Source: a bacterium (GTDB taxonomy: Bacteria; Patescibacteriota; Patescibacteriia; UBA9570). From it: a DNA stretch of 64,000 nt. The notes below the pieces were generated by a model that had not been told where the DNA came from, made no database searches, and saw nothing but the letters and a program-made list of their open reading frames with translations. The position numbers and the translations under genes were made by a program. Every line of letters starts with the position of its first letter. The first letter of the stretch is position 1. Below are positions 401-22,910 of the stretch, one piece after another. The stretch covers positions 44,726 through 108,725 of the forward strand of contig JAUYKW010000018.1 in the NCBI GenBank assembly GCA_030698395.1, in the 5' to 3' direction.

Positions 401-1681
401 ATGACTAGCAAGGTAAAAAAACAATTAGCAACATTACCACAAAAGCCAGGAATTTATTTGTTTAAAAATTCTATTGGTAATGTACTTTATGTAGGTAAAG
501 CGAAGTCTTTAAGTAGCCGAGTTCGATCATACTTTAGACAGCATAATGATTTGAATGAAGCTAAACAAATTATGGTACGGCAAATTGTTGATGTAGATTG
601 GATAGAAACAAAAACTGAATCTGATGCCATAATTTTAGAAGATAAGTTGATCAAAGATTATCAACCTAGATTTAATGTATTAGCAAAGGATGATAAAAGT
701 TTTTTGTATATTCATATAACGGATGAGAAGTTTCCTCAGGTACTAGCAGTACGGAGACCAAATCTTCGTAAAGCTGGAATATTTTATGGACCATATCCAT
801 TTGCTCGTAGTATTAGAGAAGTTCTAAAATTATTACATAACATTTTTCCATATCGGACTTGTAAAAATTTACCAAAAAAGGCTTGTTTAGAATATTACAT
901 TTATAAATGTAAAGCACCGTGCATTAATAAGATTTCAGAATCAGATTATCAAGCATTGATATATGATGTGTTAGCTTTTTTTGAAGGTAGAAATACTTTA
1001 GAGCTAGAATCAAGATTGGAAGAAATGATGCAGGTAGCTTCTGAAGATAAAAAGTTCGAAGATGCAGCAAAGTATCGTGATCAGTTAAAAGCAATAAAAA
1101 AGCTGCGTTCATTTCAAAAAACTCCACGTGAGTATTTAACTGATTATTACCAATTTAAGGCTATCGATCCTGATTTAGGCCTTCAACAGCTACAGGATGC
1201 TCTGGTTTTGCCAGCTCAGCCAAAGAGGGTAGAAGTTTATGATATTTCAAATATCCAAGGAACATATGCGGTTGGATCGATGGTGGTGTTTATTGATGGA
1301 TTGCCAGCTAGGAGTGAATATCGGAGATTTAAAATTAAAACTGTCCAAGGTGCAGATGATTATAAAAGTTTGCAAGAAGTGGTTAGACGGCGATTAAAAA
1401 GAGATTGGCCAAAACCAGATTTAGCTATCATGGATGGAGGTAAGGGGCAATTAAATGCTGTAAAACATTTTTGGCAAGATCATGACGTATCAGTTGTTGC
1501 TTTAGCCAAGAAAAGAGAAGAGCTATTTCTACCTGATCAAGCGATACCAATTACAATGGAAGCTGGTAGTCAGGGATTATTTCTAATTCAAAGAATGCGT
1601 GATGAAGCGCATCGTTTTGCCATCACTTATTATCGTAAATTGCACTCTAAATCAATGCGAGCTAATACCACTAAAAGCTAG
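401..1681 (+). CDS. uvrC: Excinuclease ABC subunit C (UvrC), short form of 426 aa that lacks the C-terminal (HhH)2 domain
   Basis: It has an N-terminal GIY-YIG motif (GIYLFKN...LYVGKAKSLSSRVRSYF). A UVR motif follows (EDAAKYRDQLKAIKKL). The C-terminus is a UvrC RNase H-like endonuclease domain (VEVYDISNIQGTYAVGSMVVF...YRRFKIK). It sits divergent to uvrA. Confidence 0.85.
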   Translation: MTSKVKKQLATLPQKPGIYLFKNSIGNVLYVGKAKSLSSRVRSYFRQHNDLNEAKQIMVRQIVDVDWIETKTESDAIILEDKLIKDYQPRFNVLAKDDKSFLYIHITDEKFPQVLAVRRPNLRKAGIFYGPYPFARSIREVLKLLHNIFPYRTCKNLPKKACLEYYIYKCKAPCINKISESDYQALIYDVLAFFEGRNTLELESRLEEMMQVASEDKKFEDAAKYRDQLKAIKKLRSFQKTPREYLTDYYQFKAIDPDLGLQQLQDALVLPAQPKRVEVYDISNIQGTYAVGSMVVFIDGLPARSEYRRFKIKTVQGADDYKSLQEVVRRRLKRDWPKPDLAIMDGGKGQLNAVKHFWQDHDVSVVALAKKREELFLPDQAIPITMEAGSQGLFLIQRMRDEAHRFAITYYRKLHSKSMRANTTKS

Positions 1682-3083
1682 GGGGAGTAGCTGGTGGAGT
1701 ACCACTTGGTGTTGATGGAATTATTTCCGGAGAATTTGTTGGAGTAGGAGGAATTGGACCTGATGGGGGAATTCCCTGAGTAGGTGCTTGTGGTTGTTGT
1801 GGCAGTGTAGGTTCTAATATTTCAGGGGTAGTAGGAGGATTATCTTGAGTTGGTGGTATAGGTTGTTGAATTGTAGCTGTTTCATCAGCTAGAGTATTTG
1901 CAATCGATGGTTCAGCTTCGAAGGCTGGTGCCATTTCTAAGGAAGCTAAGTCGGTTGCATTAATACCGGTTTGGATTAGTTCAGCATCTGAAATATGAAT
2001 TGCATCTATACCAATTCCAATAACTATGCCATTTTTATCTTGAGAACGATATATTTTTGCATCCGAAGCTAACGAGGCGTTTAATTCTGGTTGTTCTAGA
2101 GTTTTTAATTTGTCTGTAATTGATGAGGGCTCAGTGGTGAGTGTAGATTTAACAGCTGGAGATTCAGTTTTTTGCGGTAGCATGTGCAAGTCTTCTGTTG
2201 TGATGTCAGCATCAGTTACTTCTGTCGGAGAAAAATGTACAGATCCAGTAGCATGTTCAATTAGTAATCCCATTTCGGGTGTGGCATATACTTGAGCACC
2301 GGAAACGACAGTGTTTGCAACTGCCGGATTAGTATCGGAGAATTTTTTATTAAGAATTTCTATAATTTGCTCTGGCGTTAATGACTCTCGCTCTTTCTCG
2401 AGTGGAGTAACAGGCGATTCGGGTGCTTCTTCAATTGGTGAAATAGCTGGTGTGTTCGAAGTTGCTGGAGGAATGGAACCAGATTTATCAATGGTAGGAG
2501 TTGGTTGTTCATCTGTTGAGTTGACTTCAACAGGATGAGGTTTAATAAATTCTAAATCTTTAAAGATGTCTTCACTTTTTTCTGGATCGGTTTTAATTTG
2601 TGTTCGAGCTTCTTGAATTTTCTTTATTTGGTTATTTAGTTTACCCTCATTACTTTCCATGAAGCCGGTTTGTTCAATGAGCTTCTTTAGTTTATCAATT
2701 AAGCCGGTTTGTTCAGAATTAATACTTTCTAATTCAGAGATTAGTTTTTCTTCTGCACTATCCAATTTAGCCAAATAATCGACAGTCGTATCGGATGGTA
2801 CATCTTGAAGGGGTATTACTTGTGGTTTTAGAGATTCTCCAGGATTTTCTACTGGTGTCGATGTTGTCATGGGTTCAGGAGATGTTGTATCAGATTCTGA
2901 AGTAGGTGTTACTGGATTAGTTGTAGCTGAAGCAGTATTCACAAAAGGAAGTGTGATAGCTGGTCCAGACGTTGGAGTAGTTGAATTATCGTTGGGTGTA
3001 CCCATTGGTTGAGGAGGTACTGGATTTGAGGTTGATTCATTCATAATTAATATAATAATAGCATTTTTTTTAAGAAAAATCAA
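1671..3083 (-). CDS. Hypothetical Pro/Thr/Ser-rich low-complexity protein with a central coiled coil and an N-terminal hydrophobic segment, possibly surface or secreted
   Basis: It is a 470-aa ORF. The N-terminus MIFLKKNAIIILIM is followed by long P/T/S-rich tracts (TPPATPPSF, PIPPTPTNSP). The middle has heptad-like segments (KLKKLIEQTGFMESNEGKLNNQIKKIQEARTQIK). I recognise no catalytic motif. Confidence 0.5.
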   Translation of the reverse strand: MIFLKKNAIIILIMNESTSNPVPPQPMGTPNDNSTTPTSGPAITLPFVNTASATTNPVTPTSESDTTSPEPMTTSTPVENPGESLKPQVIPLQDVPSDTTVDYLAKLDSAEEKLISELESINSEQTGLIDKLKKLIEQTGFMESNEGKLNNQIKKIQEARTQIKTDPEKSEDIFKDLEFIKPHPVEVNSTDEQPTPTIDKSGSIPPATSNTPAISPIEEAPESPVTPLEKERESLTPEQIIEILNKKFSDTNPAVANTVVSGAQVYATPEMGLLIEHATGSVHFSPTEVTDADITTEDLHMLPQKTESPAVKSTLTTEPSSITDKLKTLEQPELNASLASDAKIYRSQDKNGIVIGIGIDAIHISDAELIQTGINATDLASLEMAPAFEAEPSIANTLADETATIQQPIPPTQDNPPTTPEILEPTLPQQPQAPTQGIPPSGPIPPTPTNSPEIIPSTPSGTPPATPPSF

Positions 3084-3169: not shown

Positions 3170-5656
3170 TTAAACTGTAGCATTTGCATCAGGATGTTTA
3201 AGAGTTGGCAGTTCAGCTGATATTCTATCAACATTCTTTTCAGCTTCAGCATCTCTTGAGGCCTGAGCTATATCTCCGATTTTTCCAAAAGACATATATT
3301 CAGTAGGAAGTTCATCGTTTGCTACTGATTGCAGACCCTCTAAGGCTGTTTGGATATTTAACTGACCTGCATCTGCTAATGCCTCGGATAGTTGTGGTAA
3401 ATTGATATATTCAACCCCTGCATAATTACCTGGTTCGCCAGATAATATGTAAACACCCTGAGCATTTTGTGCAGTTGTGCCTTCTGGTAATCGAATATCA
3501 ATTAATCTTCCTTGTGCTGGCAAATCTACAAGCATGCGACGCAGATTGTCATTACTAGTTGCGAACTTTTTAGCTAAAGCATTTTTAATTTCGCTTACAT
3601 TATGTTCTCTCGTTTTTACTGCTTCAGTTTTTTCCGTTCCAGCTTCTGCATACGCTTTTTCTTCTGCTGCTTCAATCTGTTCAGACATGCGGGAATACTT
3701 ATTGTCTACACTTGGTGTTTGAACTGTTTCATTTCTGGCCGCTATGGAATCTTGAACGGATTTTGGTAAAGGTATACCAGATAAAGTAGCTTCTAGTTCC
3801 CAGGCATTTTCCATATTAGCATTTGCTTCATTACTAGCTTTTGTGGCTATTGATATTTTTTTATCAAGCGTAGCTAAAGCTTTGCGTAGTGCTCTGCCTT
3901 TTAGCGTTTCTGATTTTTCTAAGTTTGCTCTTTCAACAATTAAGTTACTTTCTATTTGTGAAGCTTTAATAAATGTGTTGGCAGCTTCCATAGATGCTTG
4001 AGATGCTTGTTCTATTGCTGCATTATCGGCATCTTCATTTGTTCTTGATAGTGTTTCAACGAGTTCTTGAGAGCCAGCAACATTGGCTTCAGCTTCTTTA
4101 ATACCAGCCTGAGTATCACGACTAATTTTTTCAAATAACTTGGCTCTTCCTTTTTCATCTGTTTTTCCTGCAAGGAAACGTTGATTTACTTCCCCAATCT
4201 TATCTGATCGTGCATCAAGTAAAGTTTTTAACTTCGCTTGTGCTTGTTCTAAACTTTGTTGAGCAGGCTCTAGAGCAGCGGATTTTTCTGCAGGCGTCAT
4301 TTGTTCCATTGGACGCATTGGTGTAATCATATCTTTAGCCAAAGCAGGGCTGTTTATTGTTACATCATATACGCTTTTGTCTGTTGTGAATCTAAAATCT
4401 TGTTTTTGTCTTGGCGAAAGTTTCGATGCACCTAGTGCTGTTTGTTCATATTCATCACGGAGTGCTCTCTGTTCATGTATATCCGATGGTGTTAGAGGAT
4501 TCATTGCCTCTCCATATTTAACTGGAGCTAGACCTTCTCCTTGTTTAAAAAATTCTTGTTCAACATCGTCACCAGCAAGTTCGCTAATGGCTTTTTCTGT
4601 TTGTTTATCTTCTACTTTTTGAATTTCAACTCCAAAATCACCTAAGTTAATAACTAGGCCACGAGCTCCATCAATTCTGCCATCATATTCTTCATTTATT
4701 TTTGCAATTGCCCGTTTAATCTCAGCGTCATTTAGTTTATCTGTATCAATTTCTGCAATTGCGATTGCCTTAGCATCCATAATTTGTTTGAGTTCTTCTT
4801 GAGCATTAGCAAGAGCTTTGGTTTTTTCTGCAGGTGTCATTTCTGGTTTATTAAAGTCCATGCGAGTTCTTGCTCCAGTACCGGATTCACCAACTTTTAT
4901 ACTATACGGGCTAGCTTGGCTTGATGTTGCAGTCTCTGTTCGTTGTAACTTAATACCACCACTAGCTGTGCGCATATAGAATTCATCTGCCATGTCATTG
5001 ACAATACTGGTCATGCCTGAATCTTGCATATGAGACATCTTCCACATGCTTTGGAATAACTTATTTTGATGTTCTGGGTCAGTAGAGGTTGCAATAGCTT
5101 CTCTTAATTTTCCTACAGCTTCTTGAATACGTTGTAGTTTAGTTTCTTGTCTGGTAAATAAACCAACACGTTCTGCTAGGCGTGTTACTTGAGCTCTTAG
5201 TACACTACGTTGCTCATCCATGGCTTCGTGTCGATTGCTAACAATCGTTTCTAATATTTTTAAGCTGTTAACCATGTGCTCTGCGCTAAGTAATCCTTCT
5301 GGTTTTTCAGCTGTAGCTTCTGCATCTTCATTAGGCAAATCTGAATAATCAACATCACTCATAGGTGTTTGGTAATTTCTAGCTTCAGGAATTCTATTAT
5401 AAGTTACCACTCCTTGGTCTTCTGGTTCTCCAATGTGTTGATCTAAATCTAACATTATGTCATCACTTGGGTCGTGGGAAATGTTTGGTAGTTGAGTTCT
5501 ATCTATTGGTGTTGTGGGGGCATTGTTATCTATATTGTCATCACCTGTATCTTCAAAACGTTCTGCGCCAGATAAAGGTAAGCCAGCATTATTTTCTATT
5601 TTTTTGGCTGGTAGATCTCTTTTATTTATTGGGTCTGTTCTTTCTCTTGCAACCAT
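3170..5656 (-). CDS. Large hypothetical coiled-coil protein of 828 aa with an acidic N-terminus
   Basis: It is a long uninterrupted ORF rich in A/E/K/Q with many heptad-like stretches (LEQAQAKLKTLLDARSDKIGE, AKAIAIAEIDTDKLNDAEIKRAIAKINEEYDGRIDG). It has no TM segments and I recognise no enzymatic motif. Confidence 0.5.
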   Translation of the reverse strand: MVARERTDPINKRDLPAKKIENNAGLPLSGAERFEDTGDDNIDNNAPTTPIDRTQLPNISHDPSDDIMLDLDQHIGEPEDQGVVTYNRIPEARNYQTPMSDVDYSDLPNEDAEATAEKPEGLLSAEHMVNSLKILETIVSNRHEAMDEQRSVLRAQVTRLAERVGLFTRQETKLQRIQEAVGKLREAIATSTDPEHQNKLFQSMWKMSHMQDSGMTSIVNDMADEFYMRTASGGIKLQRTETATSSQASPYSIKVGESGTGARTRMDFNKPEMTPAEKTKALANAQEELKQIMDAKAIAIAEIDTDKLNDAEIKRAIAKINEEYDGRIDGARGLVINLGDFGVEIQKVEDKQTEKAISELAGDDVEQEFFKQGEGLAPVKYGEAMNPLTPSDIHEQRALRDEYEQTALGASKLSPRQKQDFRFTTDKSVYDVTINSPALAKDMITPMRPMEQMTPAEKSAALEPAQQSLEQAQAKLKTLLDARSDKIGEVNQRFLAGKTDEKGRAKLFEKISRDTQAGIKEAEANVAGSQELVETLSRTNEDADNAAIEQASQASMEAANTFIKASQIESNLIVERANLEKSETLKGRALRKALATLDKKISIATKASNEANANMENAWELEATLSGIPLPKSVQDSIAARNETVQTPSVDNKYSRMSEQIEAAEEKAYAEAGTEKTEAVKTREHNVSEIKNALAKKFATSNDNLRRMLVDLPAQGRLIDIRLPEGTTAQNAQGVYILSGEPGNYAGVEYINLPQLSEALADAGQLNIQTALEGLQSVANDELPTEYMSFGKIGDIAQASRDAEAEKNVDRISAELPTLKHPDANATV

Positions 5657-5835
5657 ATATTTGATAGTTAAAGAATAGTGATTTTATTTGAATTTTTTAT
5701 TTTTGATTAATATAAGTATAGCAGAAATTTGAATTTTGTCAAGTAAAATAAGGCTTTTTGTATTATTTTTTATGGATTTTAAATGCTTATTACTTATATC
5801 AATTATTAGTAACATATTTGTATGATGATTAGACC

Positions 5836-5864
5836 TTGACAAATTGTAATATATCGGTGATAAT
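5836..5864 (+). promoter_or_regulatory. Sigma70-like promoter in front of the GC-rich island ORF
   Basis: TTGACA (5836..5841), a 17-nt spacer, then GATAAT (5859..5864). It lies in a very AT-rich intergenic region. The compositional shift to high GC begins a few nucleotides downstream, where a transcript would be expected to start. Confidence 0.5.
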
Positions 5865-6018
5865 GTTCTGTCCTCTTCGTTATGGAGGGGTCTGGTTCTT
5901 ACGGCACTCTATGTCGTTGGCGCCACGCTCTTTTTTACTAGACCGGTTTAGGATAATGCCCTATTCCAAATCGTCGTGCTTTTTCGACAAATCCTTAACT
6001 CACCACAAGGGAGATAAC

Positions 6019-6987
6019 ATGACTGCGCAAGTCATTCCTTTCCCTAGCGGTGGAAGCCGGTCAGGGAAACAAGATATCTATGCTGAGATTCGGCCAAGCC
6101 AATCTCGGCTACAACAACATCGTCAAACCACAATGCAGGTAATTACGGGGACTGAGTGGACGGAACAATACCTCCACCCCCAGAACGTACGCGTGGAGCT
6201 GCCCCAACGTGGGGATGCAGAGCTCTTCGTGACAGTACACGTTCACATCCCGGCAATTCGTGGCCGGCTCCAGATTGGAGCGCAGGCGCTTGAACCGGGT
6301 AGACGACCCAGTGGTTGGGTGATGGCACAGGTAGAGGTGAGCGATCTTCGGCACCACCTCGTGTATGGACCAAGATACAAGAAGGTTCAGTATACGGTGC
6401 GACATGCCTTGGATGGCACTCACATGACCTTCCGGGTCAAGGTGGATCAATTCCCCTTCGGTCAGGCACAGGTGGTGCTTTGGTGGGTAGGCAAGAACGC
6501 CAACACCGATGGCATTTTCGTGCAGGCCAGGGAGATACCAGCTCTGACCTTGTCGACGAACGACCCTACAAGAACGATCACGCCTACGGGAGCGGTCGAT
6601 CGAACGGGAAAGGTCGTCGATAGCAACGTTGTAGTCGAGACCCACAGGTACGCATCCGGGTTTTTAACCGACTTCATCATCAACCTCCCGCACATGGATG
6701 GACAACAACATCCTGGTGTACCGCGGGTTCTCCCACGGCTGGACAAGGTGAACGTGCAAAAGGTGAACGTGCAAGACGGCACGTTGACGGTGATTGACCA
6801 ACTCACTGGCTCTGCCAAGGTGTACGACCATATCGTCTTTACGTGCGAGCGTTCAGACGAGGCTACACACCTCCGGTTCAGAGTCGAGGGGATGGACGCA
6901 ATTCCTGTCGGGTCCGAAGAGCTGGTCCTAGAATGGAGATCGACGTCTCTGGGTGGTTACTACATCCAGGTGATCGTTGATCGCTGA
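6019..6987 (+). CDS. Orphan hypothetical protein of 323 aa encoded on a compositionally foreign high-GC island
   Basis: The ATG at 6019 is preceded by AGGGAGA at 6008..6014, a strong Shine-Dalgarno sequence. The ORF track extends the frame back to a TTG at 5836, which overlaps the promoter hexamers, so the extension is unlikely to be real. The open frame runs 969 bp through DNA far more GC-rich than the rest of the window, and codon choice differs from the neighbours. It has no TM segments and I recognise no motif (no RT, DDE or HNH signature). It is followed by a hairpin at 7011..7031. Confidence 0.55.
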   Translation: MTAQVIPFPSGGSRSGKQDIYAEIRPSQSRLQQHRQTTMQVITGTEWTEQYLHPQNVRVELPQRGDAELFVTVHVHIPAIRGRLQIGAQALEPGRRPSGWVMAQVEVSDLRHHLVYGPRYKKVQYTVRHALDGTHMTFRVKVDQFPFGQAQVVLWWVGKNANTDGIFVQAREIPALTLSTNDPTRTITPTGAVDRTGKVVDSNVVVETHRYASGFLTDFIINLPHMDGQQHPGVPRVLPRLDKVNVQKVNVQDGTLTVIDQLTGSAKVYDHIVFTCERSDEATHLRFRVEGMDAIPVGSEELVLEWRSTSLGGYYIQVIVDR

Positions 6988-7166
6988 AATGTCCAGCATG
7001 GAAGTGAGAGGTACTGCGTACAACGCAGGACTTGAAACGTCGTCGCACATCAACTGCTGACTACCTCTCCATCTTCCCCTTAATCTTATAAATTATGTTT
7101 TAGACTTTTTTGTTTGTAAGTAACACAAAAGTTGAAAGCAGAATTTGTTTCTTTTAGAATCGCTAA

Positions 7167-8093
7167 CTAAGTTATTTTTAAGAGCATTACGAATTGCTCG
7201 AATGCAGAAAAATATTTCTTCGGACGTAATGTTGTATTTTGGTATTCCAACATTACTTCTATCATATAATCATCATGTGTAAACAGAACTACTCGTGATG
7301 GAGAGCTGGTTGTTGTTTCTAACATTAATCCATTTCGTTGGGAGATTTCTGGAATTGATTCAAGAATGTTAGCATTAATATATTCTGGTCTGTATTTTTT
7401 AATCCAATCAAGTGTTGTAACAGTGTCATTTTCTGCTAGTGATATTGTAAGGCTAGCACTTTCTCGATCCTTTGTTTGTAATTTTATTTTGTCTGGACCG
7501 ACTGTATTTACTTCAAAATAGTCTTCATACTCAATCGATAACTCTCCAGCATTAGTATTGAATTGTCTTTCTTGCATTGCTACCGGGTGAGTTATTTTTC
7601 CGTAGGATATATTTTCATCATATGCAGACACCATATTAATATGAGAGCTATATACAACAACTAATACCATAAAACCAATTACAACTAACGCGCAAGCGCT
7701 AAAGAAATGTTCGCCAAAACTTAACTTATTAATTTTAGATTTTTCTTCAATAGTTATTACAGGTGTTTCATTGTCACTCTCAATAGATTCAATGGGTGCA
7801 ACAGAATCGATACTTTCTATCGGTGAAATTGGTTCTAATTCTAATTTTTCAACTATGGACTGTTTTTCTGGAACTGGTTTTGATTTCTTTTGTACTTTTT
7901 TCTTAGCAACAGGTTTCTTAACAACAGTCTTTTTTGTAGTAATTTTTTTAGGTGCTTTTTTAACGGCAATGCTTTTCTTCTTTTTATTAGCTGTAACCTT
8001 TGTTACTTTAGTCGGGGCTTTGGCTTTATTCTCTTTTGCCTTGCTGACTTTAGTATTTTTTGGTTTGCTTATTTTTTTTGTTATTTTTGCCAT
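7167..8093 (-). CDS. Membrane protein with an N-terminal lysine-rich histone-H1-like tail, one TM helix and a C-terminal extracytoplasmic domain
   Basis: The N-terminal roughly 75 aa are MAKITKKISKPKNTKVSKAKENKAKAPTKV...KKAPKKITTKKTVVKKPVAKKKVQKKSKP (KAPKK and KKPVAKK repeats). A short PIESI repeat follows. There is one hydrophobic helix, FSACALVVIGFMVLVVVY, and then a roughly 170-aa non-repetitive domain. Confidence 0.6.
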   Translation of the reverse strand: MAKITKKISKPKNTKVSKAKENKAKAPTKVTKVTANKKKKSIAVKKAPKKITTKKTVVKKPVAKKKVQKKSKPVPEKQSIVEKLELEPISPIESIDSVAPIESIESDNETPVITIEEKSKINKLSFGEHFFSACALVVIGFMVLVVVYSSHINMVSAYDENISYGKITHPVAMQERQFNTNAGELSIEYEDYFEVNTVGPDKIKLQTKDRESASLTISLAENDTVTTLDWIKKYRPEYINANILESIPEISQRNGLMLETTTSSPSRVVLFTHDDYMIEVMLEYQNTTLRPKKYFSAFEQFVMLLKIT

Positions 8094-11538: not shown

Positions 11539-13308
11539 ATGCCAAATAAGAATCGACGAGAGCGGGCAAGCCGACTTGTTGTGGGAGTATCTAAAAAGAA
11601 GATGCCTTCACTAGGACAGCTCCGCTACATTAATAATTTATTATCAGGTAAAGAAAGAATAATCATTGGATTGAGTTTTTTATTTTTTTTCCTGTCTATT
11701 ATTTTTATTGGGTCTTATCGTTATTTATCAACTACAGAAGTGCAACCAAAGATTGGTGGAGAATACATAGAAGCAGTGGTTGGACATCCGCAATATATTA
11801 ATCCAGTATTATCACAGACCAATGACGTTGATTTGGATATTTCTAAATTATTGTATTCTGGATTATTTATTCGGACCAAGGTTCAGCGTCTAGAACCTGA
11901 TTTAGTGAGCGATTATGAAATTTCAGAAGATCAACTAACATATACATTTTATTTACGAAGAGATGCATATTGGCATGATGGTGAGGCGTTAACTGCTAAT
12001 GACGTAATTTTTACAATACAATCAATTCAAGATCCAAATTATCAGAGTCCTTTAGAACCAAGTTTGCGTGGTGTAGAGGTAGTTAAAGTTGATGACTATA
12101 CATTAACTTTAACATTGAAAGAACCATTTGCTCCTTTCTTATCTAGCTTAACATTCGGTATTTTGCCGGAACATATTTGGTTTAATGCCTATAAAGGATC
12201 GGTACAAAATATTACATTGTCAGAATATAATGTGAAACCTATTGGATCCGGACCCTTCGTGTTTGATAAATTAGTAAAAGATAGTGCTGGAGTACTAAAA
12301 TCTTATACAGTAGTGCCATTTGAAAAATATTATGGAAAACATCCATATCTAGAAAGCGTTACTTTTGTTTTTACACCAGACTTAATAAGTGCTACAGAGT
12401 TATTGCGTCGGAAGGAAGTTGATGCTGTAGCTTTTATCTCACCAGATCAAAAGTTAGAGCTACAAAAACAACATAAACAATTACAATATTACAATTTGAA
12501 ATTGCCTCAGTATACAGCCTTATTTTTTAATCAGGAACATTCCGATATATTAGCTAGAGATGAGGTAAGACAAGCAATTGTGTGGGGTGTAGATCGTGAT
12601 TCAATGATAGAACAGGCATTGCAAGGAGATGGAGAGCCAATTTTCACACCAATTTTAAAAGGGTACATTGGACATAATGATGATATTGAAAAATATGGCT
12701 TTGATATTGCTAAGGGAATAGAAATATTGGAAGAAGGTGGCTGGATACTGGAGGATGGTACTGAATTTAGAACTCGTAAGGACGAAACTTTAGAATTTGG
12801 AATTGCTACGGTGAATCAAGATGAATTCTTAAAAACTTTAGAGATTTTAAAAGAGAATTGGACAAAAATGGGCATAAAGGTTACTGTAGATGTGTATGAG
12901 CCGGAGGATATTCATGAGCAAATCATAAAGCCACGTAAATACGAAGCATTACTATTTGGAGAGATTGTTGGTGTTGATCCAGATCCATACGCATTCTGGC
13001 ATTCAACTCAAATGGAGCATCCTGGGTTAGCATTATCTATTTTTTATCAAAAAAATATTGATGATTTGCTAGAAACTGCACGTAAAGAAAGTGATGAAGA
13101 AGAACGACGATTAAAATACTTACATTTCCAGAATATTTTAGCTGAAGAGTTACCGGCAATTTTCCTTTATAATCCATACTATACTTATGCAATCCATCGA
13201 GATGTGCAGGGTGTAGATCCACAATATATTACTACTCCGGCTGATAGATTTGCTGATATATCCAACTGGTATAGAAAAACTGAACGGGTAAAGAATACGG
13301 ACTCCTAA
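11539..13308 (+). CDS. ABC transporter substrate-binding protein, family 5 (oligopeptide/dipeptide/nickel type), TM-anchored
   Basis: It has an N-terminal signal-anchor helix (IIIGLSFLFFFLSIIFIGSY). Its length and sequence are typical of SBP_bac_5 (GGEYIEAVVGHPQYINPVL...KLLYSGLF...DGEALTANDVIFT). Confidence 0.75.
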   Translation: MPNKNRRERASRLVVGVSKKKMPSLGQLRYINNLLSGKERIIIGLSFLFFFLSIIFIGSYRYLSTTEVQPKIGGEYIEAVVGHPQYINPVLSQTNDVDLDISKLLYSGLFIRTKVQRLEPDLVSDYEISEDQLTYTFYLRRDAYWHDGEALTANDVIFTIQSIQDPNYQSPLEPSLRGVEVVKVDDYTLTLTLKEPFAPFLSSLTFGILPEHIWFNAYKGSVQNITLSEYNVKPIGSGPFVFDKLVKDSAGVLKSYTVVPFEKYYGKHPYLESVTFVFTPDLISATELLRRKEVDAVAFISPDQKLELQKQHKQLQYYNLKLPQYTALFFNQEHSDILARDEVRQAIVWGVDRDSMIEQALQGDGEPIFTPILKGYIGHNDDIEKYGFDIAKGIEILEEGGWILEDGTEFRTRKDETLEFGIATVNQDEFLKTLEILKENWTKMGIKVTVDVYEPEDIHEQIIKPRKYEALLFGEIVGVDPDPYAFWHSTQMEHPGLALSIFYQKNIDDLLETARKESDEEERRLKYLHFQNILAEELPAIFLYNPYYTYAIHRDVQGVDPQYITTPADRFADISNWYRKTERVKNTDS

Positions 13309-13409: not shown

Positions 13410-15218
13410 ATGATAAAAAAATCAGACAAAACATACAGATCAAATGAAGCAGATACAAGGAAGCGAAAAGCGCGAACACTGCAAAGAACGGTAAGTAAAA
13501 GATCCGGTGGTAGAAAAACATTAAGTATTAATGGTTACCAAGGACCAACAAATAAACGTTCAAAATTACGTGTTGCCATTGTAGGTGGCGCAGAAGAAGT
13601 AGGAAGAAACATGACCATGGTTGAATACGGTAATGATATCGTATTGATTGATTGTGGTTTACAGTTTCCAGAAGAAGATCAACCGGGTATTGATTACATC
13701 ATCCCAAATGTTTCTTATCTAAAGGGACGAGAAAAAGATGTAAAGGGTATTATAATTACTCACGGTCATTATGATCACATTGGTGGTATTCCACATATTT
13801 CACCAGTTCTTCACCATCCTCCAATTTATGGTACGAAATTAACTAATGGAATAATTAACAAGCGTCAGGATGATTTTCCTGATAAGGGTAAATTAGATTT
13901 ACGGGAAATTGATCCTGAGAAATCTATTCAACTTGGTATTTTTAACATCGAATTTTTTCGAGTGAATCATAACATCCCTGATTGCGTTGGTATTATTGTA
14001 CATACACCCGAAGGTACATTAGTTCATACTGGAGATTTTAAATTTGACCTTCAACCAATCATGGATGAAGTTACTGATTTTGCAAAGATTGCAAATATTG
14101 GTAAGCAAGGTGTATTAGCTTTGTTGTCCGATTCTACAAATGCTCCTTCACCAGGACATCAGTTATCTGAAAGTAAAATTGGCTTAACACTTGATGAAAT
14201 ATTTAGTAAGTCTACTGGACGAATTATAGTTGGAACATTTGCTTCGTTGTTAAATCGTTTACAGCAAGTAATCTGGATTTCTGAAAAATACGGTCGTAAA
14301 GTAGTTGTAGAAGGATATAGCATGAAGAGTAATATTGAAATATCTCATAAGTTGGGATATTTGAAAGTTAATCCAAAAACATTAATTTCACCAAAAGAAG
14401 CTTTGAAGTTACCAGATGATAAGGTAACTATCATGTGTACTGGTGCTCAAGGAGAGAGTAATGCTGCTTTGATGCGGATTGCAAATCGTGAGCATAGATT
14501 TTTCAAGATTGCTCAAGGAGATACAATAATCTTTTCTTCTTCAGTTATTCCTGGAAACGAAAGAACAGTACAGCGATTGAAAGATACTCTTTTAAAGGAA
14601 GGTGCACATGTAATTCATTATGAAATGATGGATGTTCATGCTGGTGGTCATGCTAAAGCTGAAGATTTGAAATTACTATTCAGATTGTTAAATCCAAAAT
14701 ACATTATCCCTGTGGAAGGAAATAGATTCTTATTAGAAGCTTCAAAAGGTATAGCGAAAGAGTTGGGTTGGACAGATGAGACCGCCTTAGTAACAACTAA
14801 CGGACAAATCATTCAATTTTCTGGTGGCGAAGGTAAGTTACTGAAAGAAAAAATTCCAACTGATTATGTAATGGTTGATGGATTAGGTGTTGGAGATGTA
14901 CAAGAAATTGTATTACGTGATCGACAGTTAATGAGTGAGGACGGAATGTTTGTGATTATCGTTACTATTAAGAAACAAACTGGAGAATTAATCGGTAGTC
15001 CAGATATTATTTCTCGTGGTTTCGTGTACATGAAAGATGCAAAGCATTTAATTGAGGATGCTCGTAGTCAAGTAAAGAAAATATGTGCTAAGAATAATCC
15101 AGAGAATGCATCAAATCCTATGTGGTTGAAGAATAAGTTGCGAGATGATATGGGTCAGTTCTTATTTCAAAGAATTCAAAGACGACCAATGATTCTGCCA
15201 GTTGTGGTAGAAGTTTAA
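13410..15218 (+). CDS. rnj: Ribonuclease J (metallo-beta-lactamase / beta-CASP RNase)
   Basis: Motifs: LRVAIVGGAEEVGRNMTMVEYGNDIVLIDCG; HxHxDH motif ITHGHYDHIGG; beta-CASP and C-terminal domains of RNase J. A basic N-terminal extension is present. Confidence 0.9.
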   Translation: MIKKSDKTYRSNEADTRKRKARTLQRTVSKRSGGRKTLSINGYQGPTNKRSKLRVAIVGGAEEVGRNMTMVEYGNDIVLIDCGLQFPEEDQPGIDYIIPNVSYLKGREKDVKGIIITHGHYDHIGGIPHISPVLHHPPIYGTKLTNGIINKRQDDFPDKGKLDLREIDPEKSIQLGIFNIEFFRVNHNIPDCVGIIVHTPEGTLVHTGDFKFDLQPIMDEVTDFAKIANIGKQGVLALLSDSTNAPSPGHQLSESKIGLTLDEIFSKSTGRIIVGTFASLLNRLQQVIWISEKYGRKVVVEGYSMKSNIEISHKLGYLKVNPKTLISPKEALKLPDDKVTIMCTGAQGESNAALMRIANREHRFFKIAQGDTIIFSSSVIPGNERTVQRLKDTLLKEGAHVIHYEMMDVHAGGHAKAEDLKLLFRLLNPKYIIPVEGNRFLLEASKGIAKELGWTDETALVTTNGQIIQFSGGEGKLLKEKIPTDYVMVDGLGVGDVQEIVLRDRQLMSEDGMFVIIVTIKKQTGELIGSPDIISRGFVYMKDAKHLIEDARSQVKKICAKNNPENASNPMWLKNKLRDDMGQFLFQRIQRRPMILPVVVEV

Positions 15219-19989: not shown

Positions 19990-21537
19990 CTATTGTTTAT
20001 CAGTGATAATTAAATTTTTCCCAGTCATTTCTACTGGTGGTTCTTCTCCTAACAGATAAAGTATAGTTGATGCACAATCTTGGAGTGTTCCATTGTCGCG
20101 TAATTTTGAATGTCTATTTTCTTCGTCTACCAAAATGAATGGAACAAACGAATCTGTATGGAAGGTATGTGGGCAATCCCATTCTTCATCCCACATAAGT
20201 TCGGCATCACCATGATCTGCTGTAATGATAATGACACCATTATGTTTGCGAATTTCAGTATATATTTCTGCTAGTGCCATATCAATTGCTTGTACGCCAA
20301 GGATAGCTGCATCTTTGTTTCCAGTATGTCCTAACATATCAGCATTTGGGAAGTTCATAAAGTAAGTATCAAAAGCCTGTGCTTGTAAATGCTTCACTGC
20401 TTCCTTCGCAATGTTAGCTGCTTGCATTTCTGGCTTTAAATCGTAAGTAGCAACTTTGTCGGATGGAATTAATATTCGTTCTTCACCAGCAAATGGATTT
20501 TCTCGCATAACATTGAATATTTTTGTCATGTATACCCACTTTTCTGTTTCGGTTAATCTTAATTGACTGTATTTACGATCACTTAACACTTCTCCCAAAA
20601 TATTTTTTACTTCTAGTTCAGTTCTTTCTAAGGCAGTAGGTGTTTTCATGTCTGCATAATATTTACTCATGCCAACATAATGTATCTTTGGCCAGTTGCG
20701 TCGTTCAAAATGTTCAAAATCATCTTCAATGAGAGCTTTGGTTATCTCAATTTCTCTATCAACACGAAAATTAAAATTAATAACTACATCATTTTCTTGA
20801 ATTGTGCCAGCTGGATCAATTAGTGTTGGTTGGATGAACTCATCAGTTTCACCTCGGCTATATGCATCGCTAATACCCATGTGAATATTTTGAGCTTCTT
20901 GCAATCCTTCACCTAAGACCAGTAGTTTGTAGGCAGCTTCTATTCTTTCCCAACGATTATCACGATCCATTACCCACCAACGTCCTTGGAGGGAAGCGAT
21001 GGTACCTACACCGGCTGTAGCTATTTTATTTTCTAGCTTGTGAGCAAATTTTGAAACTGATTTTGGTGGTACATCTCTACCATCACTAATTACATGTACA
21101 AAGACATTTGCGATATCATATTCCTTCGCGATGTCTAATAATTCATGACAAGCTCTATCATACGTGTGCACGCCACCATCCGATAATAATCCCATTAGAT
21201 GTAAACGGCCATTACCTTGAGAGGCTTTGGTCATAGCTTCTACGATTGCTGTATTTTTACGCAGACCTCCGCTTTCAATTGCACTCAATAGTTGCATTTG
21301 AGGTAATAGTAAATTTCGTCCAGCACCCATAATGAGGTGTCCCATTTCAGTTGAGCCCGGATGTCCATTTGGTAATCCAATATGTGGACCAGCTGCACCA
21401 ATTGGTTTATTAGGATAGTTTGCGAGGAAGAAATCAATTTGCGGTGTATCTGCTAAAAAAATTGCATTATGTGCATCATCAGTACCAATGCCCCAGCCAT
21501 CTAGGACAATAAACATTATTGGTCGCTTTGCTTTCAT
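19990..21537 (-). CDS. gpmI: 2,3-bisphosphoglycerate-independent phosphoglycerate mutase
   Basis: The N-terminus IMFIVLDGWGIG is followed by iPGM metal-binding motifs (TADHGD). A 515-aa length is typical. Confidence 0.9.
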   Translation of the reverse strand: MKAKRPIMFIVLDGWGIGTDDAHNAIFLADTPQIDFFLANYPNKPIGAAGPHIGLPNGHPGSTEMGHLIMGAGRNLLLPQMQLLSAIESGGLRKNTAIVEAMTKASQGNGRLHLMGLLSDGGVHTYDRACHELLDIAKEYDIANVFVHVISDGRDVPPKSVSKFAHKLENKIATAGVGTIASLQGRWWVMDRDNRWERIEAAYKLLVLGEGLQEAQNIHMGISDAYSRGETDEFIQPTLIDPAGTIQENDVVINFNFRVDREIEITKALIEDDFEHFERRNWPKIHYVGMSKYYADMKTPTALERTELEVKNILGEVLSDRKYSQLRLTETEKWVYMTKIFNVMRENPFAGEERILIPSDKVATYDLKPEMQAANIAKEAVKHLQAQAFDTYFMNFPNADMLGHTGNKDAAILGVQAIDMALAEIYTEIRKHNGVIIITADHGDAELMWDEEWDCPHTFHTDSFVPFILVDEENRHSKLRDNGTLQDCASTILYLLGEEPPVEMTGKNLIITDKQ

Positions 21538-22910
21538 GAATCTTTTCTAATGATTGCTAAAATTTCATCTGTTTTAGCTCGCATGGTTTCTTCGTTGATA
21601 GATTCTAAATTTAGTCGTAATACAGATTCGGTGTTAGATGGTCTAACGTTGAACCAATAATCTTCATATTCAACCGTGATGCCATCTAGTTTAGATATAC
21701 TTTTGGCATCTGCTTCATAAATTTCTAAAAGTTTATTCATTATGCCCTCTTTATCTTTAACTGCAGAATTAATCTCTCCAGAATGAGCATATTTTCTGTA
21801 TGGTCGAACCTGATCTGCTACTGATTCTTCTTTACGGCTAAAGAATTTAAGAAGCATCATTGCTACAATAACAGGTGTTTCAAATACACCGAGTTCTGTA
21901 CGCATAAAAAAGTGTCCAGATGATTCGCCAGCAAATGCAGCCCCTTCTTTAATGGCTTGATCTTTAATAAAAGAATGACCAACCTTTGTAACAGATGGCT
22001 TTCCTCCGGCTGCTTCTATCATATCGCGAGTGATACGACCGGGTCGGATATCATAACAAATAGTAGAATTTGGTTCGCGTTCTAGCACTAGTTTTGCAAC
22101 CAATCCTCGAATGATAGCTGGTTCAATCATATTCCCTTCATTATCGATAAAGAATATTCTATCACCGTCTCCATCTGTTGCAATTCCTAAATCTGCACCT
22201 TCCTCAACTACACGTTTCATTAAGTCTTGATTATTTTCTTCTTTGAATGGATCTGCTTCATGCGCCGGCATATTACCATCGAGCTCAAAATTCATTTCAA
22301 TAAGTTCACATGGTAGGTGAGAGAACATGGCTCGAACATATGTACTTCCCATTGCATTTGCACAATCAGCAACAATCTTAAATGGGCGAATTCCTTCAGT
22401 ACCAACCCAATCAACTTCGAATTTTGTATGTTCTTCTACAATGCCACTTTGTTCTTCAACGTTGCCACCAGCAGTTGGTGCAGCGAAGTTATCAGCAATT
22501 ACTGTATCTCTGATCTCAGCAATACCATTTTCCATGCTTACAGGCTTTACTCCGGCACGCACAAATTTTAAACCATTAAATTCTTTTGGATTATGTGATG
22601 CAGTTACCATGATGCCACCATCGTAGGCATACTTTGCCACAGCATAATAAAAAGCTGGCGTAGATACGATGCCAACGTGCATAACGTGTAAGCCCTCATC
22701 AGTAAGCCCAGCTATTACTTGATCTTTAAGTGACGGTGATGACAAACGCATATCTTCACCTACTGCAACTGTAAGTAGTTTACCTGCGTTTTCTTTTTTT
22801 AAAAGCTGCGCATATGCTCGAGCAGTTTTATATGTAACTTCTTCGGTTAGTTCAGATCCGTAAATTCCACGAATGTCGTATGCTTTATAAATGTTACTTG
22901 CTACTTCCAT
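21534..22910 (-). CDS. Phosphoglucomutase / phosphomannomutase family protein (alpha-D-phosphohexomutase)
   Basis: Motifs: active-site serine loop TASHNPKEFNGLKF; metal-binding loop DGDGDR; sugar-binding GESSGH. Its start overlaps the gpmI start region by 4 bp. Confidence 0.85.
   Translation of the reverse strand: MEVASNIYKAYDIRGIYGSELTEEVTYKTARAYAQLLKKENAGKLLTVAVGEDMRLSSPSLKDQVIAGLTDEGLHVMHVGIVSTPAFYYAVAKYAYDGGIMVTASHNPKEFNGLKFVRAGVKPVSMENGIAEIRDTVIADNFAAPTAGGNVEEQSGIVEEHTKFEVDWVGTEGIRPFKIVADCANAMGSTYVRAMFSHLPCELIEMNFELDGNMPAHEADPFKEENNQDLMKRVVEEGADLGIATDGDGDRIFFIDNEGNMIEPAIIRGLVAKLVLEREPNSTICYDIRPGRITRDMIEAAGGKPSVTKVGHSFIKDQAIKEGAAFAGESSGHFFMRTELGVFETPVIVAMMLLKFFSRKEESVADQVRPYRKYAHSGEINSAVKDKEGIMNKLLEIYEADAKSISKLDGITVEYEDYWFNVRPSNTESVLRLNLESINEETMRAKTDEILAIIRKDS

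Follow-up and report, generated by a model that had tools for sequence, protein, structure and literature searches.

A GC-rich transcription unit of Patescibacteria with apparent selection for RNA pairing along its length

Some bacterial transcripts combine a translated open reading frame (ORF) with a conserved, selected RNA structure. In the dual-function RNAs RNAIII/hld, SgrS/SgrT and SR1/SR1P, the ORFs span ~26–60 codons, the RNAs are shorter than ~500 nt and regulation occurs by base pairing. Here, we describe a transcription unit that shares the combination. It occupies positions 5870–7081, behind a promoter at 5836–5864, of a 64-kb stretch of contig JAUYKW010000018.1. We refer to the whole stretch as the window. 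The host is a member of the Patescibacteria, or Candidate Phyla Radiation (CPR), near Candidatus Kerfeldbacteria. We read the locus as a clade-specific, vertically inherited transcription unit, the RNA of which is selected for pairing throughout and also encodes a protein. We put the probability of this reading at roughly 60%.

The unit differs from dual-function RNAs in extent. Constraint covers the whole 0.6–1.2 kb and there is no Rfam or sequence relationship. Assignment to the dual-function small RNA (sRNA) class, with ORFs below ~60 codons, was rejected; the ORF has 322 codons in the window and 138–195 in relatives. Stabilised mRNAs offer a second comparison. The ompA and aprE leaders, and 5′ stem-loops that protect from RNase J1 in Bacillus, stabilise mRNAs by structures confined to untranslated regions. 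Such mRNAs resemble the unit in that they have a strong promoter, begin in a hairpin and are structured at the 3′ end, and this genome encodes an RNase J. In the unit, synonymous sites also appear constrained throughout the coding sequence (CDS). The OLE, GOLLD, ROOL and raiA RNAs are also blocks of high guanine plus cytosine (GC) content, bounded within AT-rich genomes, with conserved structure and covariation. However, those RNAs are non-coding, whereas the unit has a well-supported ORF and no Rfam match.

The single-stranded RNA phages of the Leviviricetes and Obelisk-type RNAs resemble the unit in other respects. Both embed coding sequence in pervasive, selected structure, start in a stable hairpin and end in a 3′ domain of several hairpins that a long-range stem closes. 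They also exceed their host in GC content and encode a β-rich protein of ~130–200 aa. The unit differs because it is chromosomal DNA with a sigma-70 promoter and fixed synteny, lacks a replicase, and has no similarity to viral contigs or structures. Finally, genomic islands and singly transferred genes share the atypical composition and codon usage, and the ORFan in a variable region. Unlike these, the unit is found at the same locus in relatives, lacks mobility hallmarks or a donor, and has kept its composition over deep divergence. We found no description of such an element in the literature, Rfam or Pfam.

Conservation of a GC-rich unit at one chromosomal position

The original prediction described a sharply bounded, high-GC island, and this description stands. 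Positions 5866–7085 have a GC content of 0.539 and are the sole such outlier in 64 kb. For 1-kb segments, the window has a mean GC content of 0.350 and a standard deviation of 0.032; the highest segment outside the island reaches 0.41. Measured over 200 nt, GC content is 0.22–0.26 at 5600–5900, rises to 0.52–0.58 at 6000–6900, and returns to 0.30 by 7100. Maximum-likelihood segmentation with two change-points placed the boundaries at ~5865 and ~7080. The left boundary is 5 nt away from GTCC (5870), where the transcript is predicted to start, and the right boundary is 1 nt away from where the 3′ tail ends (7081). Because the change-points fall at the transcript ends, we defined the unit in the window as 5870–7081. 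The GC content of this segment is 0.54, against a background of 0.35. From the sequence features, we infer that transcription starts at ~5870 and that the transcript ends at ~7081.

Relatives were obtained by a protein search with PcrA and look-up of the corresponding contigs. Loci are cited by number, from L049 onwards, and the chromosomal position of the unit is called the slot. The closest PcrA relatives are 62–68% identical, and several are labelled Candidatus Kerfeldbacteria. The unit was found in seven other lineages (L049, L050/L051, L052, L054, L055, L057 and L107), with PcrA proteins 52–68% identical, always in the same slot and orientation. The shared gene order is pcrA, a ~300-aa gene, the unit on the opposite strand, an 828- or 386-aa gene (not constant), a ~400–470-aa gene, uvrC and uvrA. 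The flanking genes are orthologous to the 308-aa and 470-aa genes of the window (E = 1e-5 to 1e-43). In all six loci profiled (L049, L050/L051, L052, L054, L055 and L057), there is a sharp local GC peak at the unit, of 0.55–0.67 against 0.39–0.45. Except in L057, the unit is the segment of highest GC content in its 16–22-kb locus. Occupation of the same slot across relatives indicates a conserved feature of the clade, rather than a one-off insertion. Four of seven lineages, one of them the window, have both GC boundaries no more than 5 nt away from the corresponding landmark, the GTCC start on one side and the end of the 3′ element on the other. The start/end offsets are −5/−1 in the window, +3/−5 in L050b, 0/+5 in L054 and −1/−4 in L055. 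In L052, the change-point coincides on one side only.

The head of the unit is conserved. The promoter recognised in the original prediction was recovered by a consensus scan and matches 11 of 12 consensus positions. In six lineages, TTGAC[AT] is found 28–29 nt upstream of GTCC, with a 17–18-nt spacer and a −10 box of the TAnnnT type. The signature TTGAC[AT]-N28/29-GTCC occurs once per locus and nowhere else in ~200 kb, on either strand. A profile of the head, built from seven relatives without the window, has a sole significant match in 64 kb, at 5836–5878 (13 bits, E = 0.007); the runner-up scores 5.7 bits (E = 1.5). Hairpins starting with GTCC, or GTTCC in L050b, are present at the predicted +1 position in all relatives. 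In the window, the stem at 5872–5890 was identified both by scanning and by folding. The Shine-Dalgarno sequence AGGGAGA, also predicted, is at 6008–6014, and a GGAG-type equivalent is at the matching position in all relatives.

Between these elements, the leader varies from 67 to 169 nt across copies. It contains the 10-mer GCCCTATTCC; the window, L049, L052, L054, L055 and L107/L108 each have a single exact copy, always within the leader of the slot unit. The distance to the start codon is 42–56 nt across lineages, and there was one unrelated match in ~1 Mb of sequence. The leader of L050b has a variant of GCCCTATTCC, and L057 has a shorter leader without the motif. A 13-mer, GTGCTTTTTCGAC (5976–5988, forward strand), exactly matches the leader of L049; it is downstream of GCCCTATTCC in the window and upstream in L049.

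A recent horizontal acquisition of mobile cargo, or of a toxin, immunity or phage gene, had been proposed on the basis of the composition. In such a scenario, a single gene from a GC-richer bacterium, phage or plasmid would have arrived behind a host-like promoter. Composition and codon usage are indeed strongly atypical, the boundaries are sharp, and the gene is an ORFan among lineage-specific genes that have no family assignment. However, the promoter spacing, 5′ hairpin, leader motif and 3′ clamp (see below) are shared in the slot of the seven lineages, across the same range of PcrA identity. The junctions (~5866 and ~7085) have no convincing direct or inverted repeats, there is no tRNA in the 64-kb window, and no integrase, transposase or recombinase is encoded among the neighbours of the island. 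The island has no phage or plasmid DNA matches. No donor homologue was found among 1.84 billion protein representatives or in scans of viral and metagenome contigs. Furthermore, the two copies of an internal duplication in the ORF now share 23% identity and are no longer similar as DNA, but GC content at third codon positions (GC3) is still 0.62. Hence, the composition has been held for a long time. Taken together, these observations make a recent transfer very improbable.

The original prediction also named chimeric assembly or contamination, in which a 1.2-kb foreign piece was spliced in. The source is a metagenome-assembled genome (MAG) and composition does jump at both ends. Against this, a separate Logan contig (run SRR13727534, 14.3 kb), the source of the second member of the ORF protein's cluster, matches the window at every position over 9,659 nt (100% identity), both junctions included, although that assembly was probably built from the same read set as the MAG. 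In addition, homologous architecture is present at the same locus in unrelated samples and assemblies (NCBI, ENA and Logan). The AT-rich side, with the promoter, and the GC-rich side, with the GTCC hairpin, are held 28–29 nt apart, so the junction itself is conserved. A chimera is therefore barely credible.

Other searches returned no further copies. A scan of genome contigs with PcrA found only distant genomes (at most 44% identity, with one best segment at 48%), did not recover the MAG and gave no information on empty sites. Exact look-ups of the flanking 308-aa and 828-aa proteins returned the same sample only. A metagenome scan with the composite pattern TTGACA-N28/29-GTCC-N76-106-GCCCTATTCC gave 49 matches (L058–L106), none of which was a true copy of the unit. 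Some 30 of the 49 are a conserved ClpB/ClpA AAA+ coding stretch in unrelated GC-rich contigs that fits by accident. The rest look like chance matches, and one is a tRNA-Leu gene. This shows that a composite pattern with 20 specified bases and gaps can still match conserved coding DNA. The same scan of viral contigs gave zero matches.

Evidence for pairing throughout the transcript

We compared the minimum free energy of each CDS with that of 40 permuted versions. In these, synonymous codons were swapped among identical amino acids, so that protein sequence, codon usage and GC content were constant. All seven ORFs of the unit gave z-scores between −4.0 and −6.9, with −5.3 for the window, and no permutation reached the native energy. 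Fifteen AT-rich neighbouring genes, used as controls, gave z-scores of −2.2 to +1.3, with one at −3.7. For 19 GC-matched coding segments from unrelated contigs, the mean was −0.74 and the minimum −3.5. The control gene at −3.7 (L056, 12982–13725) encodes a 247-aa homologue of the uvrC-proximal gene, in a relative without the unit.

Substitution rates were measured within the only subfamily represented by several DNA sequences, that of L052, L054 and L107/L108 (hereafter the L052 subfamily). The flanking genes compared were pcrA and the 300-aa and 400-aa genes, plus uvrC and uvrA for the L052/L054 pair. In the slot ORF, synonymous divergence (dS) was 0.22–0.38 and nonsynonymous divergence (dN) was 0.09–0.13, with dN/dS of 0.33–0.54. 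The corresponding values for flanking genes were 0.86–2.9, 0.02–0.32 and 0.01–0.18. Synonymous sites are saturated or nearly so in the flanking genes, but not in the slot ORF. Identity between L052 and L054 was ~0.47 in unconstrained intergenic DNA and 0.75–0.87 in flanking coding DNA. For parts of the unit, it was 0.89 (promoter and 5′ hairpins), 0.73 (middle of the leader), 0.79–0.97 (ORF) and 0.97 (3′ clamp and ~150 nt beyond).

A consensus structure for the L052 subfamily was calculated with RNAalifold and contains 239 pairs in an alignment of 858 columns. In this structure, 98.1% of cells are paired, compared with 37–43% when partners were slid by 1–3 columns. Pairs changed on both sides number 28, against 1–5 for slid partners, and none of 500 shuffles reached the observed values. 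Half of the compensatory pairs (14 of 28) are supplied by a long hairpin that follows the clamp. Within the CDS, variation consists mostly of one-sided changes from G-C to G-U. The long hairpin is an extension of the conserved region, which in this subfamily runs ~120 nt past the clamp (alignment columns 722–839). Of its 33 pairs, 14 have changes on both sides, and L052 and L054 share 97% identity in this part. A hairpin of this kind would not fit in the window, where only the stretch between the end of the tail (7081) and the stop of the convergent 308-aa gene (7167) is available.

At the 3′ end of the unit, a hairpin had been predicted at 7011–7031. We found this hairpin (CUGCGU-ACA-ACGCAG, 7014–7028) to be one arm of a larger closed structure, the 3′ clamp, at 7000–7077. 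A pyrimidine tract follows and ends at 7081. The clamp fold has a z-score of −3.4, and none of 200 shuffles was as stable. The same architecture is present in L049, L050b, L052/L054 and L107, with a reduced form in L055. In each, a purine strand resembling a Shine-Dalgarno sequence, near the stop codon, pairs with a CCUCC-like strand; one to three hairpins are enclosed, and a pyrimidine tract comes after. The purine strands among copies are GAGAGGUA, GGAGGGUAG, GGAGGUGG, GAGGCAGG and GGGGA. Of the five distinct closing stems, four are fully complementary and that of L049 is paired at 6 of 8 positions. The purine strand is directly at the stop codon in L052, L054, L055 and L107, and 12–18 nt downstream in the window. 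The shape of the tail is reminiscent of a cloverleaf, and identity as a tRNA or tmRNA was considered and rejected; ARAGORN finds neither, and the sizes of arms and loops are not tRNA-like.

The 5′ leader was suggested to be a structured regulatory RNA. This was correct to the extent that conserved RNA elements are present. However, the leader of the window folds no better by itself than shuffled sequences (z = −1.4 to −1.7, not significant); the leaders of relatives give −2.3 to −4.7. No meaningful Rfam 15 match was found at E ≤ 10 over window positions 5000–8000, or at E ≤ 0.1 in L049, L052 and L055. In the fold calculated for the L052 subfamily, the leader motif GCCCUAUUCC remains unpaired, and it looks like a binding site for a protein or RNA.

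Thus, the high GC content is apparently maintained by selection at the RNA level and does not reflect foreign origin. Selection of this kind would both raise GC content and push the composition of the encoded protein towards arginine.

The ORF, its protein and alternative readings

The predicted ORF was confirmed, with ATG at 6019 and TGA at 6985–6987, and encodes 322 aa. Its GC content is 0.554. Codon usage differs from that of the neighbours, as had been noted, with GC3 of 0.62 against 0.20–0.25. The remaining codon-position values are of the coding type: GC content is 0.63 at first (GC1) and 0.41 at second (GC2) positions, with 0.35 G and 0.12 T at first positions. Composition of the coding type is found in all seven lineages. 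The open frame covers 373 codons, compared with a maximum of 279 in 2000 shuffles of the island. An internal repeat reaches a local alignment score of 73 (z = 9.2), whereas shuffled sequences average 29 and never exceed 50. It is detected in this frame only (29–39 in the other five) and is absent at the DNA level; the repeats are now 23% identical. Since the repeat is seen at the protein level in one frame only, we take it to be an old duplication preserved by selection on the protein. Across lineages, start codon, stop codon and Shine-Dalgarno sequence keep a fixed relation to the leader and clamp. On these sequence grounds, the ORF looks to be translated.

Three starts have been called for this ORF. 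PGAP annotates 221 aa from M102, the Logan call is 374 aa from an ATG at 5863, within the promoter and leader, and the start supported by the Shine-Dalgarno sequence, at 6019, gives 322 aa. The frame is open through the entire leader, back to 5836.

The original prediction recognised no motif in the protein, and none was found by searches of Pfam, PHROG, PADLOC, NCBIfam or PDB sequences. The sole database match is the protein itself, MDP3970694.1, whether 5.8 billion clusters were searched by word index or 1.84 billion representatives exhaustively by phmmer. That entry comes from a MAG labelled 'bacterium' and is annotated from a later start. Viral and metagenome contigs, phage records and plasmids yielded no homologue of the protein. 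When the PDB was searched with a profile built from both repeats, nothing matched, and there was no similarity to viral protein structures. The protein has no transmembrane segment (maximum Kyte-Doolittle score of 0.86 over 19 residues) and no signal peptide. It contains 25 arginine and 9 lysine residues; native proteins are lysine-rich, the opposite bias. A single-sequence AlphaFold2 (AF2) model of the window protein was unusable, with a predicted local distance difference test (pLDDT) score of 36. Conversely, the model for a relative's slot protein has a predicted template modelling score of 0.60 and a β-sandwich core with pLDDT of 62–82. The ORF probably encodes an orphan soluble protein with a disordered N-terminus and a β-sandwich domain, which is present in two tandem copies in the window protein. 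A type I toxin-antitoxin system of the hok type was ruled out, given the absence of a small hydrophobic toxin and the presence of a 322-aa soluble β protein without transmembrane segments.

These properties bear on a reading in which the unit is a large structured non-coding RNA, with the ORF a by-product of GC-richness and no protein made. GC-rich islands in AT-rich genomes are reportedly, from the GC-content-based searches of the Breaker laboratory, classically structured RNAs. Constraint at the RNA level is strong, the ORFs cannot be aligned across subfamilies, and neither homologues of the protein nor a fold more specific than a generic β-sandwich were found. However, the length of the open frame, the coding-type codon positions in seven lineages, and the frame-specific repeat at the protein level all speak for a protein. 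So does dN/dS, which is below 1 in the L052 subfamily. The GGAG-type Shine-Dalgarno sequence and start codon are fixed, and every lineage has the clamp next to the stop codon. A C-terminal motif is kept at fixed distance, and the β core is modelled with confidence in a relative. We consider a purely non-coding RNA quite unlikely.

All slot ORFs are ORFans, and we examined if they form one family. Our first impression of an obvious shared motif was not confirmed by pairwise alignment (z = −1 to 2.2), jackhmmer or hhalign; significance was reached only for a short motif at a set position. The only link between subfamilies is from L050b to L054 (E = 5e-4), with 25% identity in a full-length alignment. 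Five independent lineages have this motif, [VLFI][VLFI]L.W, at a distance of 21–27 residues from the C-terminus, and repeat 1 of the window protein has it at the equivalent spot. Its joint chance by shuffling is ~2e-12, with a background of 4 in 130 ORFs, for a pattern that was chosen post hoc. An h-x-h-x-h-P motif was also seen by eye in slot proteins. The codon-position signature, ORFan status and C-terminal motif support a common origin, which standard alignment statistics fail to demonstrate. The neighbouring ~300-aa proteins are only 16–27% identical between subfamilies. With neighbours this divergent, a domain of ~110 aa below the limit of detection is expected under vertical descent. 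An alignment of the ~300-aa family is also too divergent to be scanned for patterns. Exceptionally fast evolution of the slot protein was ruled out, because in the L052 subfamily it is 78–83% identical, compared with 59–77% for neighbours.

Several points weigh against selection for pairing in a vertically inherited unit. First, dS and covariation come from the L052 subfamily only, which amounts to three effective sequences; the lineage of the window lacks close relatives in public data, its best PcrA match being 68% identical. The sequences that gave the consensus structure are also those on which it is judged. For the copy in the window, the RNA evidence consists of the permutation z-score, the z-score of the tail and the change-points, with the leader, at about −1.5, not significant. 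Second, homology between the window ORF and those of relatives finds no support in alignment statistics and rests on synteny, shared flanks and short post hoc motifs. Among 112 ORFs of these loci, jackhmmer gave no cross-subfamily match at E ≤ 1, including for the window ORF. Comparison of the window repeats with the L050b/L054 subfamily by hhalign gave a probability of 0.4%, although it picked the region noticed by eye. Third, L056, with PcrA 63% identical, has neither unit nor GC peak, and the two flanking genes are adjacent. Hence, the unit is dispensable. Fourth, dS of the slot ORF does not scale cleanly with backbone divergence, and its low value could partly result from exchange of the unit between relatives.

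The last two points would also be compatible with an ordinary lineage-specific gene, the GC content and low dS of which result from recombination or exchange, by GC-biased gene conversion or cassette swapping, with incidental structure. Its absence from L056 points to gain or loss of the unit, and the ORFs cannot be aligned between subfamilies despite conserved flanks. Even so, divergence within the unit is heterogeneous (0.73–0.97) and not uniformly low, and most of the variation consists of compensatory changes and of one-sided changes from G-C to G-U. The ORFs fold far better than GC-matched genes or codon-permuted versions of themselves. The GC boundaries match transcript ends, not flanks of the recombination type, and there are no repeats or recombinase genes nearby. 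The divergence of neighbours across subfamilies again makes unalignable 110-aa domains expected under vertical descent. We regard exchange with incidental structure as unlikely and prefer a vertically inherited unit with selection on its RNA.

Surroundings, possible function and significance

The coordinates of features in the unit, and of others mentioned in the text, are collected in Table 1. The original prediction placed the gene between uvrC and pcrA. The interval is correct, but the gene is not directly between the two; three genes of native composition, encoding 470, 828 and 308 aa, are also there. These have no Pfam or NCBIfam family. Their products are rich in proline and threonine, coiled-coil or lysine-rich, and are probably linked to the cell envelope. 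The 470-aa and 308-aa genes are found throughout the clade, whereas the 828-aa gene has a homologue in L049 only. Gene content of the window is otherwise that of an ordinary chromosome, with uvrA and uvrC upstream, then pcrA and genes for a Ser/Thr kinase, RNase J, a class-I aminoacyl-tRNA synthetase, MurD and iPGM. The rest of the window contains no second copy of any piece of the island, whether compared as DNA or as protein. A role as target of a diversity-generating retroelement was ruled out, since the window has no template repeat and no reverse transcriptase was identified among the neighbours examined.

Table 1. Positions of features in the window and in related loci. Window coordinates are given unless a locus is named.
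Feature	Position	Strand	Details
Sigma-70-type promoter	5836..5864	+	TTGACA 5836-5841, 17-nt spacer, GATAAT 5859-5864
5′-terminal hairpin at predicted transcript start	5870..5892	+	GUCCUC-UUCGUUAUG-GAGGGGUC
5′ leader	5870..6018	+	149 nt, GC-moderate
Conserved leader motif GCCCTATTCC	5958..5967	+	51 nt upstream of ATG
Shine-Dalgarno AGGGAGA	6008..6014	+	4 nt upstream of ATG
Orphan ORF	6019..6987	+	Two diverged ~135-aa repeats: repeat 1 ~6136-6540, repeat 2 ~6574-6984
VVLWW	6472..6486	+	[VLFI][VLFI]L.W motif of repeat 1
LVLEW	6922..6936	+	[VLFI][VLFI]L.W motif, 21 residues before C-terminus
3′ clamp	7000..7081	+	Outer stem GGAAG 7000-7004 with CUUCC 7073-7077
Clamp closing stem	7006-7013 with 7062-7069		GAGAGGUA with UACCUCUC
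Hairpins inside closing stem	7014-7028, 7029-7041, 7042-7061
Divergent promoter-like site	5715..5742	-	TTGACA-16-TATACT with TG extension; faces 828-aa gene; context, outside unit
Native-composition genes around island	1671-3083, 3170-5656, 7167-8093	-
Long post-clamp hairpin	L052 13139-13256; L054 ~13020-13140; L107 ~2010-2130
Toxin-antitoxin pairs	L049 3897-4485; L054 9380-9968; L056 8974-9509

Some relatives have further features of note in this region. Toxin-antitoxin pairs (PhdYeFM/PemK, RelB/YafQ) are encoded immediately upstream of pcrA in several relatives and not in the window. As they are present in some relatives only, that side of pcrA is a variable spot. L050 has a second GC-rich segment (12238–12891, equivalent to L051 5857–6510; 0.59–0.67) right after pcrA, without the TTGACA-N28/29-GTCC head. 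The gene called in this segment has in-frame stops, because the caller used a genetic code with reassigned stops. L057 has a further GC-rich block at 21200–22100 (0.64–0.67, against a background of 0.45). Some genomes of the clade may thus carry more than one such island. Several PcrA proteins of the clade are 900–1100 aa long and contain intein/Hint domains PF14890 and PF01079 (P0021, P0025, P0087, P0090–P0092 and P0103).

We propose the following role for the structure. The RNA would be made from the near-consensus sigma-70 promoter and would start in a stable 5′ hairpin. This hairpin would block RNase J, which depends on the 5′ end and is encoded in the window at 13410–15218. The 3′ clamp would block 3′ exonucleases, so that the structure would make the mRNA long-lived. 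Transcripts that resist nucleases classically carry a hairpin at the 5′ terminus and a clamp at the 3′ end. In addition, the structure would gate translation; given the position of the Shine-Dalgarno-like clamp strand at the stop codon in most copies, terminating ribosomes would have to open the clamp. Our best guess is a long-lived mRNA gated by its structure. The alternative is a folded RNA that has a function of its own alongside the protein.

A more speculative possibility, to which we attach little weight, is a chromosomal virus-like module of RNA and protein. Here, the folded, nuclease-resistant transcript would be cargo, bound or encapsidated by its own protein. The disordered N-terminal arm and β-sandwich may be likened to the coat proteins of small RNA viruses. 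In an episymbiotic CPR bacterium, such a module could serve to export RNA or deliver it to the host cell, or it could be the domesticated remnant of an RNA replicon. In a weaker form, the unit would be the first cellular mRNA of this length with its whole coding region under structure selection like that of RNA viruses.

Coding and structural constraint on one transcript are already known, from dual-function sRNAs and RNA-virus genomes. Pervasive structure over a whole coding region is familiar in the latter and, to our knowledge, not known for cellular genes of this size. A cellular mRNA of such size, constrained throughout and conserved together with dedicated 5′ and 3′ modules, would be a new form of a known type, the transcript under both coding and structural constraint. 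If the signals described above hold, the clade has an mRNA of 0.6–1.2 kb in which synonymous sites evolve 4–12 times more slowly than those of neighbouring genes, and which folds 4–7 standard deviations beyond recoded versions. Atypical GC content is routinely taken as horizontal transfer. Here, it marks what we read as an old, vertically inherited unit, a cautionary case for island detection in AT-rich genomes. The unit is an experimentally tractable element in the poorly understood CPR/Patescibacteria, and could reveal a new form of post-transcriptional control or an RNA-protein particle.

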